Virus record (IMG/VR): IMGVR_UViG_2737471818_000008
DNA from: a virus
Lineage: Duplodnaviria > Heunggongvirae > Uroviricota > Caudoviricetes
Direction: 5' to 3' (one strand)
Length of the DNA: 15,982 nt
Below the pieces are notes generated by a model. It saw nothing but the letters and a program-made list of their open reading frames with translations, was not told the DNA's origin and searched no databases. Both the position numbers and the translations under genes were made by a program. Below are positions 2,954 to 15,982 of this stretch, in pieces (within the stretch, counting starts at the first letter, position 1; each line of letters begins with the position of its first letter).

Positions 2954-3751
2954 ATGATTGATATTCATGCCGAATTAAACGAATACAAAAAAGATTTTAT
3001 TTCTTTACGTGAATTTCTTGAGGTCGTGCTTAAGGTCGCTGGTGATGATTATGATGTTTCAGATGTCATAACTTGGATACTCAGGAGAATAAGCGGAGAA
3101 CATATCCGCCTGTACACAGTAAATGAATTTAAGCTGTTGGAATCTTTTTGTAACCCGTATCGGGATGAATTTGATTATGATGTTCTTTATAGAAATCTGA
3201 ATGCGGTTCGGAAACGTGGTTGTTTACCTGGTGAGAGGGATGAAAATGGTTTTCTGGTGTCCGGTTATTGGGAAGATCCCGAATTTGAGAACATTGGATT
3301 TATAAGGGGTGAAATTTTCGCAATTTTTCCCGATGTCCTTGACGCGTTAACGAAGCTGGAAGGCGCTAACTCTTCTGAAAATGACGAGGCACAAGGACGC
3401 GATATTGAAAAGAAAGAGTTGCGTACAGAGGATGATTTATTATCCCAAATCGCAATGCTGGAAAAAGAAAACGCAGAGTTAAGGGCAAGGATAGAGCAGT
3501 TAGAGCAAGAGCGCCCGATACACTTATATAAATACTGGGATAAAGACCCATTAGCTAAGGCTATTGAGATTAGAAACAGAGAGTGGGCCAATTACGATCC
3601 AGAAAATGATTTTGCCACCAGGGGAAATCAAGAAGCGATAACCAGGGAGCTTAAGCAGTGGGGGGCAAGTAATGCACTTGCAACGCTCATAGAGAGGACT
3701 GCCTGCCCTATTAACCGAGACAACAGCCAAAAGAACGCAAAGCCGGATTAA
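2954..3751 (+). CDS. Hypothetical protein with a coiled-coil segment; AT-rich orphan cargo gene between int and alpA
   Basis: ORF with ATG at 2954 and GAGG 7 nt upstream (the ORF track begins at GTG 2948). Visibly more AT-rich than the flanking int and alpA. Heptad-like stretch LLSQIAMLEKENAELRARIEQLEQER. No catalytic motif recognised. Confidence 0.6.
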   Translation: MIDIHAELNEYKKDFISLREFLEVVLKVAGDDYDVSDVITWILRRISGEHIRLYTVNEFKLLESFCNPYRDEFDYDVLYRNLNAVRKRGCLPGERDENGFLVSGYWEDPEFENIGFIRGEIFAIFPDVLDALTKLEGANSSENDEAQGRDIEKKELRTEDDLLSQIAMLEKENAELRARIEQLEQERPIHLYKYWDKDPLAKAIEIRNREWANYDPENDFATRGNQEAITRELKQWGASNALATLIERTACPINRDNSQKNAKPD

Positions 3752-3765
3752 CGCACCATACCGCA

Positions 3766-3910
3766 TACCCTGAGGATGATTTACTGTTACCCTGAGGGTA
3801 TTTTTTTATCTTCCCCGTCAATTTTACCATCACCCTTAGGGTAGATTTCCTCCCGATTACCATCACCCTTAGGGTTAATTTCCTTCCGGTAACCATTAGG
3901 CCTGAGGGTA
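3766..3910. repeat. Array of palindromic TACCCT-N-AGGGTA motifs including two 27-bp direct repeats, upstream of alpA
   Basis: Seen directly: TACCCTGAGG (3766-3775), TACCCTGAGGGTA (3788-3800), ACCCTTAGGGTA (3832-3844), ACCCTTAGGGT (3865-3875), CCTGAGGGTA (3901-3910). The 27-bp units TTACCATCACCCTTAGGGTAGATTTCC (3824-3850) and TTACCATCACCCTTAGGGTTAATTTCC (3857-3883) differ at 2 positions. Confidence 0.6.
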
Positions 3911-3978
3911 TGAAAATATTCGTTATTTCTGTGCCATGATTACCTCGTCAAATTGAGTAGACGTTATGAGGTAAATAT

Positions 3979-4176
3979 ATGTCAAATACGCTTATTCGTT
4001 TAACAGAAGTTCAGCGTAGAACTGGATATAGCAAGGCATGGATTTATCGCCTTATGGGGCAAGGTAAATTTCCTGCATCAGTTAAAATTGGCTCGCGAGC
4101 TATTGCTTTCGTTGAGAGTGAAATTGACGAGTGGATTAATCAGCGTATTGCGGAATCACGCGGAACAGCTACCTGA
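3979..4176 (+). CDS. alpA: AlpA-family phage transcriptional regulator / excisionase-like DNA-binding protein
   Basis: 65-aa ORF with GAGG 7 nt upstream of the ATG. LIRLTEVQRRTGYSKAWIYRLMGQGKFPASVKIGSRAIAFVESEIDEWI is the characteristic AlpA/Vis-type winged-HTH sequence found after int in P4-like and PICI elements. Confidence 0.85.
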   Translation: MSNTLIRLTEVQRRTGYSKAWIYRLMGQGKFPASVKIGSRAIAFVESEIDEWINQRIAESRGTAT

Positions 4177-4253: not shown

Positions 4254-5054
4254 ATGAAATTTCCAAAAACGCCCGTACAGGGGCGGGGCTTCGTTCGGCC
4301 TGAAAACCAGAATCTGCAAAATTTCGGCGAAATTATCCCGATTATTTCCGGCGTTATTGGCGGGAGTGAAACCACTATTGTTAGCGCCAGAGCGTTACAT
4401 AAGGCGTTAGGTGTAGGGCGCGTTTTCCGTTCGTGGATCAAGGGGCGCATTGAAGAATACGGGTTCACGGAAGGCGTGGATTATGAGGTTGTTGAATATT
4501 TGAGCCGACCCGATCCGGTGAGCGCAAAATCTCGCCAGCAAACCGCTCTTGAGTACATCATCACAGTGAACATGGCGAAAGAACTGGCGATGGTAGAACG
4601 CACCGAACAGGGGCGCGCCGTTCGTCAGTACTTCATCAAATGCGAGGAAGAGCTACACAAGGTTGCGCCTGTACGTTCCGCAGCGTTACGCCGGGAACTG
4701 AAAGCCCGTATCACAGTTGCCAGCTACTTTAAGCCAATGTGTGCCGCGCTGGAGGCGTACCGGGCTGAACTGGGTAAAAACACTCTACAGCACCACTACA
4801 CCACGGAAGCCAATATGCTGGCGCGTATCGTGCTGGGTGGCATGACTGCAAAACAGTGGGCGCAGGCGAACGGCATCACAGGCGAACCACGCGACCACAT
4901 GAGCACGTTGCAGCTTGAGCACCTTTCTTACCTTGAGCAGAGCAATATCACGCTGATTGAGTTAGGCCAGGACTACCACCAGCGGAAAGCTGAATTAATT
5001 CGCCTTTCGCAGCGTTGGTTAGCCCGTCGCATGGAGGAAAACAGCCATGTGTAA
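4254..5054 (+). CDS. Phage antirepressor-like protein (AntA/ORF6N-type N-terminal domain)
   Basis: 266-aa ORF with CAGGAG upstream. The N-terminal stretch SARALHKALGVGRVFRSWIKGRIEEYGFTEGVDYEVV matches the pattern I associate with AntA/ORF6N antirepressor N-domains. The domain assignment is from memory and needs an HMM search. Confidence 0.6.
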   Translation: MKFPKTPVQGRGFVRPENQNLQNFGEIIPIISGVIGGSETTIVSARALHKALGVGRVFRSWIKGRIEEYGFTEGVDYEVVEYLSRPDPVSAKSRQQTALEYIITVNMAKELAMVERTEQGRAVRQYFIKCEEELHKVAPVRSAALRRELKARITVASYFKPMCAALEAYRAELGKNTLQHHYTTEANMLARIVLGGMTAKQWAQANGITGEPRDHMSTLQLEHLSYLEQSNITLIELGQDYHQRKAELIRLSQRWLARRMEENSHV

Positions 5055-6348
5055 CGCTCTGACCGTTACAAAAAGAGAAAGCGCCCCGTTGCCGGAGCGC
5101 CTTTGTGAACGAATAGCCTACTGCGCCATATTGCTTACTGTCTACGGGGCAGATTATAGCGTTGTGGTCGCACAGAGTGAAGGCGCTGATCACCGTTTCT
5201 ACAGCACGCCGGAAATGCAGAATATTTTGCTGCAAAATGCCGTTGGTCACGCCGTCCGGAAAGCAAAAAATTTTGCTGGTGGTGCGACCGATACGATTTT
5301 GTCAGGTCGCCAGGTGCTGATTAATCTGATGTCTGATTTCGTTCTGGATAAAACAAAGGCGACCGCAGAGGGCCGCCAGTGGGAAAGCTACATACTTGAA
5401 CGCATCGCCAACAATGCCAGATTTGCGGCTGGTGGACAATGTGTCAGCTTTGCACCAATGACTCTATGTTTAACTGAGGGTCATTATGGTGAATATGCTG
5501 GCTTGCTGGTGGGCTATTCCTGCTCTTTAACATTGCCATGCCGCGATGTTTTCCAGGTATGCGATCCCATTTTTGTGCGCCTGTACTCTTTAAGGAATTG
5601 CTCAAGGGCAAAAGCACATGGCGCGAATCTTTCTGATTCATGCTCTATCTTTCTGCGCCGTCTTTTCCGTGCCGGTGATGGTGTATTGGTTGATTCTTTG
5701 TTGGTCATGGCGCTGCCCTGTAAAACGATGCACCGTAGTTCCTCACACCACGGCGCTGGTGATGGTTACTCCTGTTCTTTGGCCTTGCGGCGCTGGCGGT
5801 ATTCAACTTCTCGCTTTAATGCTGCTGTTACAAACTGCCCTGTACTTTCACCAGGCATTTTTACCGCCTCAACATTGTTCATAACTTCATGCGGAACCCT
5901 TGCCGCAACTGTTTGTGATTTTGCGTTTACTGCTTTTGTCGCCATGTTGTGTACCCCTTACAAAAAACAAATGCAGTATGCAGGAAAAAAAATAAGTGTT
6001 CAACACTTGACGTGTTTAACACCTGGACTTAAATTGGTGTTCAACACCTTGTTGATGCAAGGTGCAGAAACGACAACGCCCCGCAGTGGTGGCACACATG
6101 CAGGACGTCTAACCACCAACGATAGCAAGAGTATCGAGGTAGCTATGAGAAATCATACCACACACCCGCAAGGGCGGGACTCGCACAACCTGAATAAATA
6201 CATCTGGCGTTTTATCGCCCTGAGCACGGCACAACCGCGCGTAATTCACATCGAGGCCACCAGCGAACAGGAAGCACGCCAGCAATCTCCTGATGGCTGC
6301 GTGATGGTATTCGCCGCCCGTATTCGCCAGGAGGTGGAACATGTGTAA
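5047..6348 (+). CDS. Hypothetical protein; only the 5' ~140 codons look coding. The 433-codon ORF is probably a chimeric read-through across an antisense gene, an intergenic operator region and a separate in-frame small gene
   Basis: Start ATG overlaps the stop of the upstream gene (ATGTGTAA). Codon usage over about 5047-5470 looks like normal coding sequence. Beyond that the translation becomes Cys/Ser/Thr-rich and crosses an operator/promoter cluster at 5996-6047. No in-frame stop exists before 6348. Confidence 0.25.
   Translation: MCNALTVTKRESAPLPERLCERIAYCAILLTVYGADYSVVVAQSEGADHRFYSTPEMQNILLQNAVGHAVRKAKNFAGGATDTILSGRQVLINLMSDFVLDKTKATAEGRQWESYILERIANNARFAAGGQCVSFAPMTLCLTEGHYGEYAGLLVGYSCSLTLPCRDVFQVCDPIFVRLYSLRNCSRAKAHGANLSDSCSIFLRRLFRAGDGVLVDSLLVMALPCKTMHRSSSHHGAGDGYSCSLALRRWRYSTSRFNAAVTNCPVLSPGIFTASTLFITSCGTLAATVCDFAFTAFVAMLCTPYKKQMQYAGKKISVQHLTCLTPGLKLVFNTLLMQGAETTTPRSGGTHAGRLTTNDSKSIEVAMRNHTTHPQGRDSHNLNKYIWRFIALSTAQPRVIHIEATSEQEARQQSPDGCVMVFAARIRQEVEHV
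5766..5945 (-). CDS. Small ribbon-helix-helix-like DNA-binding protein (59 aa), candidate repressor of the divergent promoter; not in the supplied ORF track because it is under 60 aa
   Basis: Hand-translated from the minus strand: MATKAVNAKSQTVAARVPHEVMNNVEAVKMPGESTGQFVTAALKREVEYRQRRKAKEQE. AAGGGG lies 8 nt upstream of the ATG. The pattern is strand (TVAARV), helix, loop, helix. Three palindromic operators lie immediately upstream. Confidence 0.4.
   Translation of the reverse strand: MATKAVNAKSQTVAARVPHEVMNNVEAVKMPGESTGQFVTAALKREVEYRQRRKAKEQE
5996..6047. promoter_or_regulatory. Divergent promoter/operator region: three GTGTT(C/T)AACAC palindromes overlapping a sigma70-like promoter
   Basis: Seen directly: GTGTTCAACAC (5996-6006), GTGTTTAACAC (6012-6022), GTGTTCAACAC (6037-6047). 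TTGACG (6007-6012), a 17-bp spacer, then TAAATT (6030-6035) forms a plus-strand promoter with operators flanking the -35 and overlapping the spacer and the region just downstream of the -10. Confidence 0.55.
6145..6348 (+). CDS. Small protein (67 aa), possibly Icd-like host cell-division inhibitor family; first gene of the rightward operon
   Basis: In-frame ATG at 6145 with GAGG 6 nt upstream, downstream of the operator/promoter cluster. MRNHTTHPQGRDSHNLNKYIWRFIALSTAQPRVIHIEATSEQEARQQSPDGCVMVFAARIRQEVEHV resembles my recollection of Icd-like small proteins in P4-like prophages. Unverified. Confidence 0.4.
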   Translation: MRNHTTHPQGRDSHNLNKYIWRFIALSTAQPRVIHIEATSEQEARQQSPDGCVMVFAARIRQEVEHV

Positions 6349-7346: not shown

Positions 7347-7637
7347 ATGAAAAAGAAAAATTCTGGCTTTACTGCCAGCGGCCTCTCTCGGCCTGAAATC
7401 CGCCCCGGTGATATTTTCCGGGACACCAGACGCGGGGGACGGGTGGTTATTCGTCACGTTACGCCAGGCAATATCACCTACCGCCGTGAGGCTTACGAAT
7501 ATGACTGCGTAATGCCGCGCCGTCAGTTTGATCGTGATTTTATTCTGGTGGAAAACAAACAACAGGCAGTGGCGAGACGTGCAGCCACGAATATTAAAAA
7601 AATCCGGGCAATGTTGGTTGCGGGAGGTAAGAAGTGA
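7347..7637 (+). CDS. Hypothetical basic protein (96 aa)
   Basis: ORF immediately after the previous stop; its stop overlaps the primase GTG start (GTGA). Confidence 0.6.
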   Translation: MKKKNSGFTASGLSRPEIRPGDIFRDTRRGGRVVIRHVTPGNITYRREAYEYDCVMPRRQFDRDFILVENKQQAVARRAATNIKKIRAMLVAGGKK

Positions 7638-9439
7638 AAAACGCACCGAGTCTAAAATATCAGCCGAAGGATAAATTCACTGAGGTAATCATTTTTGCCG
7701 GGACGGATGCTTACGCCCATGCTCAACACTGGATTGAAAGTGAAGGACGAAAACACGGCGATAACGTGCCTCCTGTTTACCTGGGGCCAAAGCAACTGGC
7801 AGACCTGGCGAATATCCGCATTATTGACGAGAAACGCCGTTTTGCGCGTGTCTATATCGCGGGGGAGATAGAGCCAATCCAGATCAATACTATCGCTGAA
7901 AAGCTGGCGCTGGCTGGCGTACAGGAGGCGAAATTATACAAAGGTATCACCGACCAGGAACCGGAGAACTGGCGCGACTACCTGCAACGGATCCGCGAAC
8001 AGGCTGAGCACGGGGAAGTTTCAGTGATGAAATTAGCTACAAAAAATAGTGGTCTACCCAAGCCTGCATTAAATCAGATGGGAGCCAGCCAGAGAGGGGA
8101 GGTGTTACTTGAACATTATGGAGGAGCACTGGCGATAAATGATGATTCTGATGTAGTTCACCATTACAACGGAATTGTTTGGGAGCCTGTATCTGATAAA
8201 GAACTCCAGCGGTCTATGGCGAAGATTTTTATTGATGCCGAAATTAGTTATTCGCAAAACGCCATTAAATTTGCCGTAGAGACAATGAAATTGAGTCTAC
8301 CTGTTATGGGGGGAGCGGACAGAAATCTTATTGGGTTCAGTAACGGTGTTTTTGATATCAGGACAGGAAATTTTCGGGAACACAACAAAAATGACTGGTT
8401 GTTAAATGCCAGTGAATTACCGTTCAGCCCGCCAGAAGAGGGGGAAACGCTGGCAACACATGCGCCGAATTTCTGGAAGTGGTTGCGTCGTTCGGTGGCG
8501 GATAATGCTCGTAAAGCGGATCGCGTACTGGCGGCATTATTCATGGTACTGGCGAACCGGTACGACTGGCAGTTATTCCTTGAGGTAACGGGGCCGGGCG
8601 GAAGCGGTAAAAGTGTGATGGCGGAGATTTGTACCATGCTGGCGGGTAAGGCCAATACAGTATCGGCGAGCATGAAGGCGCTGGAAGACGCGAGGGAACG
8701 AGCGTTAGTGGTAGGATATTCTCTGATTATCATGCCTGACATGACCCGCTACGCAGGTGATGGTGCTGGGATTAAGGCCATTACAGGCGGTGACAAGGTG
8801 GCTATCGATCCGAAACACAAAGCGCCCTATTCCACGCGCGTTCCTGCGGTAGTGCTGGCAGTAAACAATAATGCCATGTCATTCAGCGACCGTAGTGGGG
8901 GGATCTCGCGTCGACGAGTGATATTTAATTTCTCTGAGGTTGTACCAGAGAACGAACGCGATCCGATGCTGGCGAAAAAGATAGAAGGGGAACTGGCCGT
9001 AGTGATTCGCCATTTGCTTACACGATTTGCCGACCAGGACGAAGCGAAAAGACTACTTTATGAGCAGCAAAAATCAGAAGAAGCACTGTTAATAAAGCGT
9101 GAAGGTGATTCGCTGGTGGACTTCTGCGGTTATCTGATGTCGTTGGTTAAATGTGAGGGGATGATAGTAGGTAATGCAGAAATAGTGCCATTTAGCCCGA
9201 GGCGATATCTGTATCATGCTTATTTGGCTTATATGTCTGCGCATGGTCTGGGAAAACCGGTATCACTGACACGCTTTGGTACAGATATGCCAGGGGCAAT
9301 GGCTGAGTACGGAAAGGAGTACAAGCGGGCTAAATGCACTAAAGGTCCAGATAAAGGGCGAACGATCACAAATGTTCTGTTAGATAAAGATGCTGATGGA
9401 TGGTTACCAGCAGCGGCAGGCATTAACGACAGAACATGA
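7634..9439 (+). CDS. Phage/plasmid primase, P4 family (primase-helicase with C-terminal NTPase domain)
   Basis: 601-aa ORF with GTG start and GGGAGG upstream. Walker A GPGGSGKS and a downstream Walker-B-like acidic motif; overall architecture typical of P4 alpha-like / PICI pri-rep proteins. An iteron array follows immediately. Confidence 0.88.
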   Translation: MKNAPSLKYQPKDKFTEVIIFAGTDAYAHAQHWIESEGRKHGDNVPPVYLGPKQLADLANIRIIDEKRRFARVYIAGEIEPIQINTIAEKLALAGVQEAKLYKGITDQEPENWRDYLQRIREQAEHGEVSVMKLATKNSGLPKPALNQMGASQRGEVLLEHYGGALAINDDSDVVHHYNGIVWEPVSDKELQRSMAKIFIDAEISYSQNAIKFAVETMKLSLPVMGGADRNLIGFSNGVFDIRTGNFREHNKNDWLLNASELPFSPPEEGETLATHAPNFWKWLRRSVADNARKADRVLAALFMVLANRYDWQLFLEVTGPGGSGKSVMAEICTMLAGKANTVSASMKALEDARERALVVGYSLIIMPDMTRYAGDGAGIKAITGGDKVAIDPKHKAPYSTRVPAVVLAVNNNAMSFSDRSGGISRRRVIFNFSEVVPENERDPMLAKKIEGELAVVIRHLLTRFADQDEAKRLLYEQQKSEEALLIKREGDSLVDFCGYLMSLVKCEGMIVGNAEIVPFSPRRYLYHAYLAYMSAHGLGKPVSLTRFGTDMPGAMAEYGKEYKRAKCTKGPDKGRTITNVLLDKDADGWLPAAAGINDRT

Positions 9440-14233: not shown

Positions 14234-15982
14234 GTGAAAATATCTTTTTTTGGCGTAAATAACTTTAGGACAATATCAGGTGGCATTGGTAATAATAGAA
14301 TAATATTTAAAGATAGCAATACGCTTTTCATTTACGGGGCAAACAATGCTGGAAAATCAACTTATTTAAAAGCATATATGTTTTTTTACAGTAATGAAAA
14401 ACCTATCATTGATGATTTCTTTAAACGAGACGACAATAATTCTATTGAGTTTGAATTAGAAGTTCAACTTGATGACTTGGATAAAGAAAGAATAGAAGCC
14501 AAAGCACCGAAGCAAAAGGAAAGTTATAAGAAGTATTTAAATAATGATTTTATTAGAATTAAGAAAGTATGGAGTAAAAATGGAACAAGAATAGAGGATA
14601 AAAATTATACTTATGATTATAGTAAAGGAGATAGCGGCGAGTATGATGAAGTTGGATATGCAACGATTGGTTTGCATCAGGTCTTCCAATCTTGTTTGCC
14701 AAAACCTGTATTTATAAAGGCTATGCCAACAGAGGAAGAAGCTAAGAAGATTCTTAATGAAATCCTAAAGATGATGGCTGAAAATACACTTAAAACATCT
14801 GATCTTGATGAATTAAAAGCAGCTCAGAATAAAATAAAAGAATTACAAGACAAAATGTATGATCCAGAATTGATTGAGACCTATCAGAATTCAGTTAACG
14901 GATACTTTAACAAGATATTCGGTGATACTGCTATATGCTTCAAAGATCAAAAAGATAGGGTTGTTTGGACGGAGAATAAGCTTGGCAGAGATTTTGAAAT
15001 TGAGTTTATGAAAAAAAATAGCCAAGGGGAGTTTGATGGCAATATCCCTTCAAGTTATAGCAGTGTAGGTCATGGAACTATTAGGACTGCAATATTTACA
15101 TTATTATTGATGAGAGATGTAGCAGAGCGTTTTGAAAGAAGGCTTGGACGTAAGGATTACATGGTTCTGTTTGAGGAGCCTGAGCTATTTCTCTATCCTA
15201 GAATGGTGAAGGAACTTCGTGAATTGATTTATCAGGTGAGCACTGAAGACCTTCCATATCAAGTACTTTGTGCCTCACATTCATCTTCCATGATAGATCT
15301 TTCAAAGCCTAAATCTTCGATAATACGATTAGTTAATAATTCTACTGGAACTAAATCATATCAAATTAATGATCAATTTTTGAAGGATGCAAAAGGCATT
15401 GCTACAAATGCTGAACTTAAACAAGAAATGTATGAAGTTTTGAGGTTTAACCCTTATATTTGTGAATCATTCTACGCTGATGAGGTGCTTCTGATTGAGG
15501 GGCCAACAGAAGAAATAATATGTAGAGCTTTTTTACAAGAAACCCCATCAGATAAATCTATATTCGTATTGAACTGTGGTACGGTTAATAACATTCCTTT
15601 TTATCAAAAAATCTTCTCAAGGTTTAATATAAAATATCATGTGATCTGTGATACAGATAAAGCAGAAATAGTTACCGTAGATCAATCTGGCAATGCAGAT
15701 TTTGATTCTGGAATACAGAAAACAATTTCAGAACAGTATAGGAATGATTGTACTGCAATGAATGGTAATATAGGACTACTTCGAACTCATAACATTACAT
15801 TTGAACCTGCTCATCAGGATGTTAGTATTCCTGACTTTTTGAGATTTGTTGATTGCGGTGATAGAAGCAAACCATTTAATGCAAACTTGTACTGGAAGGA
15901 TATTTTAAGGCCAAATATATCACATCAAGATATAAATAAAGTGCCTATAATTAAGTATTTGAATGAAATAATAGCACATTAA
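14234..15982 (+). CDS. OLD-family ATP-dependent nuclease (N-terminal ABC-type ATPase plus C-terminal TOPRIM domain); class 1 OLD or Gabija GajA-like; candidate anti-phage defence protein
   Basis: 582-aa ORF with GTG start and AAGGAAA upstream, in strongly AT-rich DNA. Motifs read directly: Walker A GANNAGKST (near 14336-14362), Walker B MVLFEEPELF (near 15161-15190), H-loop-like ASHS, TOPRIM glutamate LLIEGPTEE (near 15491-15517) and DxD ICDTDK (near 15644-15661). Size matches P2 Old and GajA. Confidence 0.85.
   Translation: MKISFFGVNNFRTISGGIGNNRIIFKDSNTLFIYGANNAGKSTYLKAYMFFYSNEKPIIDDFFKRDDNNSIEFELEVQLDDLDKERIEAKAPKQKESYKKYLNNDFIRIKKVWSKNGTRIEDKNYTYDYSKGDSGEYDEVGYATIGLHQVFQSCLPKPVFIKAMPTEEEAKKILNEILKMMAENTLKTSDLDELKAAQNKIKELQDKMYDPELIETYQNSVNGYFNKIFGDTAICFKDQKDRVVWTENKLGRDFEIEFMKKNSQGEFDGNIPSSYSSVGHGTIRTAIFTLLLMRDVAERFERRLGRKDYMVLFEEPELFLYPRMVKELRELIYQVSTEDLPYQVLCASHSSSMIDLSKPKSSIIRLVNNSTGTKSYQINDQFLKDAKGIATNAELKQEMYEVLRFNPYICESFYADEVLLIEGPTEEIICRAFLQETPSDKSIFVLNCGTVNNIPFYQKIFSRFNIKYHVICDTDKAEIVTVDQSGNADFDSGIQKTISEQYRNDCTAMNGNIGLLRTHNITFEPAHQDVSIPDFLRFVDCGDRSKPFNANLYWKDILRPNISHQDINKVPIIKYLNEIIAH

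Follow-up and report, generated by a model that had tools for sequence, protein, structure and literature searches.

Five copies of a 13-bp dyad, TACCCT-N-AGGGTA, precede the alpA gene of a phage satellite and probably form the operator array of a leucine zipper protein encoded immediately upstream of them (positions 2954 to 3751), through which the alpA promoter, PalpA, would be gated. Because the array would control the promoter of the master activator, it would thereby gate the decision of the element to leave the chromosome. A preliminary description of this DNA had proposed cooperative binding by a dimeric regulator that controls induction, and had named AlpA, a helper-phage activator and a host factor as possible binders. 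The general idea is a reasonable reading, because selection acts on the sites, which are dyad-symmetric, are set at near-integral helical spacing and lie directly upstream of the alpA core promoter, but none of the three named binders fits best. The best candidate is the open reading frame (ORF) immediately upstream, which had been overlooked. The result makes the switching-on of such satellites accessible to experiment.

Satellite and probable operator sites

The window, the whole stretch of 15,982 nucleotides that was analysed, is a PICI-type phage satellite, EcCICFT073-like and located at a tRNA-Thr gene. The att junction lies at tRNA-Thr(CGU) (1369-1444) and is followed on the plus strand by the tyrosine integrase gene int (1611-2825), an ORF of 265 aa without a Pfam match (2954-3751) and alpA (3979-4176; 65 aa, PF05930, WP_000072422.1), the proposed regulated gene. 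Beyond alpA come an AntA-domain gene, an Icd-like region, a DUF4222 gene and a D5-type primase gene (7634-9439), to which the matching Escherichia coli record adds genes for ProQ/FinO, PerC and DUF2213 proteins and an ATP-dependent nuclease. The gene order int, alpA, Icd-like, DUF4222, primase and PerC is common to the window and EcCICFT073, the Gram-negative reference PICI, and the region was found in 148 of 5,426 complete E. coli genomes, chromosomal in every case. The master activator of PICIs from Gram-negative hosts is AlpA; helper phage induces alpA transcription through an unidentified factor, alpA is needed for induction, and the existence of a master repressor has been called "unclear" (PMC6092414).

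Three further features of the element deserve mention. At the 3' accessory end, the last gene of the island (14234-15982, plus strand), which runs off the window, matches the PADLOC model Old (E = 5e-63); it encodes an ATPase/nuclease of the Old family and is likely to be anti-phage cargo. A mechanical ORF of 433 aa (5047-6348, plus strand), with an Icd-like domain at its end (residues 385-428), is probably not one gene, because RefSeq annotates this DNA as a pseudogene, a YlcI/YnfO gene on the minus strand and an Icd-like gene of 67 aa. Finally, an Rfam int-alpA RNA (RF02996; 45.5 bits, gathering threshold 35.8) lies at 2870-2937 on the plus strand, between the integrase stop codon and the 265-aa ORF, and does not adjoin alpA. 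The AGAGG at its 3' end is the ribosome-binding site of the 265-aa ORF, and the int-alpA RNA may therefore be the 5' leader of any gene that follows int.

The gap between the stop of the upstream ORF at 3751 and the alpA ATG at 3979 measures 227 bp, as described previously. Direct reading and a repeat finder confirmed the five related sites within it, namely three with perfect cores, one with a single mismatch and one weak; the three full palindromes reported earlier are true of the 11-bp cores. Site 1 (TACCCTGAGGATG, 3766-3778), a distal copy centred at 3772, about -175 relative to the predicted transcription start, has one mutated arm, a G>A change on the right setting it apart from most relatives (TACCCTGAGGGTG, ending in GGGTG). 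Site 2 (TACCCTGAGGGTA, 3788-3800; centre 3794, about -153) is a perfect 6-1-6 dyad directly followed by a T7 run, which makes it terminator-like in this lineage only. Sites 3 (CACCCTTAGGGTA, 3831-3843; centre 3837, about -110) and 4 (CACCCTTAGGGTT, 3864-3876; centre 3870, about -77) have perfect 11-bp cores and are each preceded by ACCAT (3826-3830 and 3859-3863, respectively), which before site 3 reads as an extra degenerate half-site. Site 5 (AGGCCTGAGGGTA, 3898-3910; centre 3904, about -43) is the weak, promoter-proximal copy; it keeps the right half only, follows an ACCAT at 3892-3896 and abuts the expected location of a -35 hexamer. The centres of neighbouring sites are 22, 32 to 34 and 43 bp apart, corresponding to 2.1, 3.1 to 3.2 and 4.1 helical turns.

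This clustering is not random. The 11-bp core ACCCTNAGGGT, with at most one mismatch, has 4 matches in the 15,982 bases, all of them within 3767-3875, against 0.19 expected, and none of 200 shuffles contained four; the same outcome was obtained for a 26-kb E. coli locus (L001). Site 3 lies in the first copy of a tandem duplication of 33-bp units (3824-3856 and 3857-3889, plus strand), each consisting of one operator and a spacer and 88% identical according to the repeat finder. The near-identical 27-bp direct repeats of the preliminary description were roughly right, as the first 28 bases of the two units differ at 2 positions, but the true period is 33 bp and the repeats are one site duplicated in tandem. 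Among near-identical E. coli islands, the unit is present once (L003, L005 and L008), twice (the window) or three times (L002, at 1573-1671, and L042), with spacers of 194, 227 and 260 bp, respectively, indicating that the duplication is recent and polymorphic. Such variation in the number of operator units is a possible natural tuning of alpA control. A decayed copy is found in E. coli 52F4 (L004, 1501-1760), where a 22-bp deletion fuses sites 1 and 2 and alpA breaks off after 8 codons, at which point a RepA-helicase fragment takes over.

The sites are kept in related elements. A motif-first scan of 2.9 million IMG/VR viral contigs for two perfect cores 8 to 38 bp apart yielded 53 loci, 34 of which, from many genera, have an AlpA that shares at least 74% identity with that of the window. 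These 34 loci have 3 to 5 sites each, and the DNA between the sites is unalignable; 17 non-satellite matches are unrelated tandem repeats in other taxa. In two E. coli islands with an upstream ORF 63% identical to that of the window (L006 and L007), the spacer has diverged, but three copies of ACCCTNAGGGT persist at corresponding positions. When 18 non-redundant spacers, with a pairwise identity of 35% among lineages, were anchored on a common TGnNATNAT element, the site centres fell at -31, -65, -108, -131 and -163 relative to the -10 hexamer, held to about 1 bp in either direction. A site (at most 3 mismatches, within 2 bp) occurs at -65, the position of site 4 of the window, in 17 of the 18 lineages, at -108 and at -131 in 12 of 18 each, and at -163 in 12 of 14, compared with a mean of 3% at control positions (2-mismatch criterion). 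Relative to the predicted start, the common layout is about -43, -77, -120, -143 and -175, and that of the window -43, -77, -110, -153 and -175; the window departs from it by the extra 33-bp unit only, with the two distal sites pushed outwards. Conservation of the sites in sequence and position while the flanking spacers diverged shows that they are under selection.

Gene family linked to the sites

At every motif locus with upstream DNA present, a homologue of the 265-aa ORF (34-100% identical) ends 5 to 15 bp before the first site. The association was also seen when loci were chosen by AlpA: in 80 loci from GTDB species genomes, with AlpA proteins 69-87% identical to that of the window, the upstream family occurs together with at least two sites in 6 loci and with fewer than two in 7, whereas the loci lacking the family comprise 65 with fewer than two sites and none with two or more (Fisher p = 7e-6). 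Of the 7 family-bearing loci with fewer than two sites, three belong to a distant family with repeats of the CCYACC/GGTGGG type, and in the other four the dyads are variant, namely TACTATCAGGGTA in Photorhabdus, and ACCCTGAGAGT and ACCATGATAGT in Cedecea and Atlantibacter. A gene-first scan of IMG/VR found 2 to 5 sites downstream of the gene in all enterobacterial subfamilies, and related dyads with ACTAT in place of ACCCT in the remote members (P0037 and P0043 groups). The motif drifts with the protein, reading TACTAT-N-ATAGTA in the P0037 group and the hybrid TACTATCAGGGTA in the Photorhabdus group. The pairing spans at least 10 genera and is kept though the N-terminal half of the gene has been exchanged repeatedly. 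It also extends beyond PICIs: in L055, an unrelated non-PICI element of 53% G+C with cI/cro-like neighbours and no adjoining alpA, a 258-aa family member (5476-6345) is followed directly by two copies of TACCCTCAGGGTA and a third, weaker copy, in an intergenic position between convergent genes.

The binder could instead be a regulator of the helper phage or a transcription factor of the host, with the upstream gene as a linked passenger; helper phages do induce alpA transcription (PMC6092414), and linkage could hold gene and array together. We nevertheless consider this unlikely. A search of phage genomes for the motif, suggested in the preliminary description, detected the paired motif in none of the recognisable enterobacterial phages of the 2.9 million IMG/VR contigs and gave no BLAST similarity in 50,697 phage records. 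A helper or host factor leaves unexplained the exclusive pairing with one gene family across those genera, its retention despite the N-terminal exchange and its presence in L055, and a host factor in particular does not account for the restriction of the motif to loci with the gene, as 0 of the 65 loci without it have the motif.

Binding of the dyads by AlpA, activating its own promoter as in EcCICFT073, is very unlikely, even though the dyads are located upstream of alpA and AlpA self-activation is known in EcCICFT073 and probable in EcCIMP1 (PMC6092414, PMC11773190). Kluyvera L104 and Enterobacter L103 have identical AlpA proteins (100%) and identical leaders, but in L104 four ACCCTNAGGGT sites accompany the family gene, and L103 has a different gene with CCYACC/GGTGGG-type repeats and no ACCCTNAGGGT; the arrays of L089 and L092, whose AlpA proteins are 97% identical, are likewise entirely different. 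Three E. coli loci (L009, L010 and L012) have the same recognition helix, TGYSKAWIYRL, without the motif, and E. coli islands with this AlpA helix but with an unrelated int-alpA gene, or none, carry other repeats. The motif is equally missing from the 65 GTDB loci in which AlpA is 69-87% identical and the upstream family absent, and from the EcCICFT073 int-alpA spacer, where no ACCCTNAGGGT was found and where PalpA, the one AlpA-activated promoter so far characterised, carries 10-bp phased ACAAC direct repeats of the kind usual for Xis-like monomers, not dyads. Conversely, the array is present in L055, which has no adjoining alpA. Collectively, the swaps between loci, the AlpA-first counts, the gene-first scan and L055 indicate that the motif tracks the upstream gene, through its C-terminal part, and not AlpA.

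Two further explanations are highly improbable. The palindromes might be RNA hairpins or intrinsic terminators that stop int or ORF transcripts, and site 2 with its T7 run did score as terminator-like, with a similar T-run after one site in the L006 lineage; however, the stems have 5 to 6 pairs only and loops of 1 to 3 nt, the T-run is missing after the sites in most other lineages and in the window follows site 2 only, the free central base and the arms conserved in sequence, with no compensatory change, form a pattern of protein recognition, and five copies at fixed places relative to a -10 element would not be expected. A recombination, replication or packaging site (integrase arm or excisionase sites, iterons, pac/cos) is scarcely tenable, for although attP regions typically have arrays of repeats close to int and to an Xis-like gene and the PICMI authors propose that an int-adjacent gene joins the excision complex (PMC10803314), the array lies 2.3 kb away from the tRNA-Thr att junction, too far for arm sites, and 3.7 kb from the primase gene and its surroundings, is dyad-symmetric rather than direct, accompanies Int alleles that are 61-100% identical among loci with the same motif, and is locked in position to the alpA -10 element.

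Other arrangements of the same kind occur before alpA. In L011, L080, L092 and L103, a distantly related gene family (C-terminus LWSTYDEDDPQTAPTK...) is accompanied by its own CCYACC/GGTGGG-type inverted repeats, whereas L081 and L086 have three to five copies of ACTTCCA and L015 has TTCCCAAA-type repeats, each with yet other genes. The succession of int, a variable gene, its own repeats and alpA may thus be a general layout.

Zipper protein and the predicted alpA promoter

The candidate binder (WP_000565286.1, annotated as "hypothetical") consists of an N-terminal domain (residues 1-140) that is variable within the family and is followed by a linker, a leucine zipper of four heptads, L162-I166-L169-N173-L176-I180-L183 (nt 3428-3511), and a conserved helical C-terminal domain of about 70 aa (residues 187-255; nt 3512-3718). 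The heptad leucines are L162, L169, L176 and L183, with Asn N173 at an a position; L169 and L183 are invariant in the family. Bare zipper-plus-domain members exist, and the minimal core of the candidate regulator is the zipper and C-terminal domain, 109 to 118 aa. A sequence search of the PDB returned coiled-coil and zipper matches only. No family match was found in Pfam, NCBIfam or PHROGs, which speaks against a known activator family, and matches to 0 PADLOC families speak against a known anti-phage defence gene. The four-heptad zipper with Asn at an a position resembles that of bZIP proteins and makes a parallel dimer likely, and one RefSeq record names a relative, WP_021513198.1, a bZIP transcription factor. 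The bZIP identity was nevertheless rejected: residues 140-161, before the zipper, are acidic and form no basic region, there is no Pfam bZIP match, and the conserved, putative DNA-binding part comes after the zipper.

The promoter on which the protein would act is predicted to be of the extended -10 type (3932-3940, plus strand), with TG at 3932-3933 and the hexamer CATGAT at 3935-3940, which would place the transcription start at about 3947. No canonical sigma-70 promoter was predicted before alpA; the -35 position is occupied by GAAAAT (3912-3917), with nothing resembling TTGACA 17 bp upstream. TGnNATNAT, 43 to 44 bp before the ATG, is common to all lineages with the array, and all five sites lie upstream of about -37, leaving the -10/+1 region free. 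The alpA leader (3941-3978, plus strand; consensus CTCGTAAACCGCAATAGACGTTACGAGGTAAATATG) hardly varies between islands whose upstream modules differ, and it moves with alpA, not with the operator array. Its invariance points to a recombination boundary near the start site, between a unit of regulator, operators and -10 element and a unit of leader and alpA. An inverted repeat in it (3940-3948 and 3966-3974) covers the Shine-Dalgarno sequence GAGG (3968-3971). With a predicted RNA fold of -8.2 kcal/mol (z = -1.0) and variants that are not compensatory, the repeat may be a DNA site, possibly of AlpA, rather than an RNA hairpin.

A dimeric state of the zipper protein, as the heptads suggest, would agree with the 6-1-6 symmetry of the sites: the zipper would hold two C-terminal domains in two-fold symmetry, fitting TACCCT-N-AGGGTA. 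Dimers may bind cooperatively to the stronger sites further out (about -77 to -175), which are 2, 3 or 4 helical turns apart, and from there would help to fill the weak site near -43, beside the -35-less extended -10 promoter of alpA. A helper-phage product might trigger activation by contacting the variable N-terminal part, which, whatever the sign of control, is a plausible place of helper sensing in view of the analogy to SaPI Stl. We infer the binding of the C-terminal domain to the sites, the cooperativity, and the promoter and start of alpA from features of the sequence.

As to the sign of control, an activator role is favoured by the geometry, with no site over -10/+1, no -35 and a weak dyad at about -43, a position used by class II activators, lambda cI at PRM and Mu Mor/C, and by the locking of site positions to the -10 element within about 1 bp. 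A gene at the same position in Vibrio PICMI, needed for helper-induced excision, by analogy also favours a positive role (PMC10803314). The main alternative for the zipper protein, which is possible, is a repressor or a roadblock that insulates alpA from int and ORF read-through. In support of it, the first site is always at most 15 bp after the stop codon, no conserved terminator separates alpA from the int region, which is expressed constitutively, members consisting of the bare zipper and domain occur, and the L055 array is situated between convergent genes.

How Gram-negative PICIs sense helper phage has been a question since their description. The present analysis supplies a 13-bp operator, a candidate regulator, a predicted promoter and natural swap variants, which reduce this question to simple experiments. 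If the proposed control by the zipper protein is true, its C-terminal part would found a new family of DNA-binding domains, and the findings would be relevant to PICIs engineered as delivery vehicles, in which control of induction is needed. Tentatively, and with considerable doubt, the int-alpA gene family might be the missing helper sensor of a large group of Gram-negative PICIs, combining exchangeable N-terminal sensors with a zipper and a previously undescribed DNA-binding domain. On meeting a helper product, the dimer would switch PalpA, either as an activator or as a relieved repressor; other families with their own repeats (CCYACC- and ACTTCCA-type) would be parallel solutions, and the order of int, sensor/regulator, operators and alpA would be a general induction module.

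Comparison with known systems

The cis element is of an ordinary kind, an operator array. In the literature searched, no paper names cis elements at PalpA or a function of the int-alpA gene in E. coli islands, nor does there appear to be a description of the regulator family, of its domain or of such a layer of control on Gram-negative PICIs. Close relatives in kind are the alpA promoters of EcCICFT073 and EcCIMP1, which belong to the same type of element and drive the same regulated gene, are autoactivated by AlpA (in EcCIMP1 probably) and are helper-induced; the published work on them names no cis elements and no regulator but AlpA (PMC6092414, PMC11773190). EcCICFT073 differs from the window in that alpA follows int with no intervening gene, in its AlpA allele and in carrying ACAAC direct repeats in place of dyads. 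Its spacer in E. coli CFT073 (L070, 8188-8252) contains six ACAAC repeats in exact 10-bp phase, with a second short run near alpA, and these repeats are good candidates for AlpA sites.

In Vibrio PICMI, variable gene families (iolg/icg) lie between int and alpA, in the same position as the upstream ORF; iolg is constitutively expressed with int and required for helper-induced excision, and alpA is phage-induced (PMC10803314). The likeness is one of position. The iolg gene overlaps int and, in its authors' proposal, takes part in the excision complex rather than in transcription; no operators are described for it (PMC10803314).

SaPI Stl, the master repressor of Gram-positive PICIs, offers a likeness of another sort, namely a regulator gene by int, a highly variable part that possibly senses the helper, and multiple operators on the first induction gene. 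However, Stl is divergently transcribed, has an N-terminal helix-turn-helix (HTH) and uses operators that overlap the regulated promoters, whereas in the window the gene is co-directional with alpA, lacks a recognisable HTH and has its conserved part at the C-terminus, after the zipper, and no site covers -10/+1. This layout, with co-directional genes and all sites upstream of about -37, speaks against a Stl-type module.

Class II CRP/FNR promoters, lambda cI at PRM, and phage Mu Mor and C share a dyad near -42, the absence of a -35 element and dependence on an activator, and in lambda OR1 loads OR2 cooperatively. The zipper protein is unrelated in sequence to these regulators, and five sites reaching to -175 exceed what those systems have. 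The predicted alpA promoter may resemble theirs, with a recognisable -10, no -35, a dyad that would be centred at about -43 from the predicted start, and stronger neighbouring sites that could load this weak one cooperatively.
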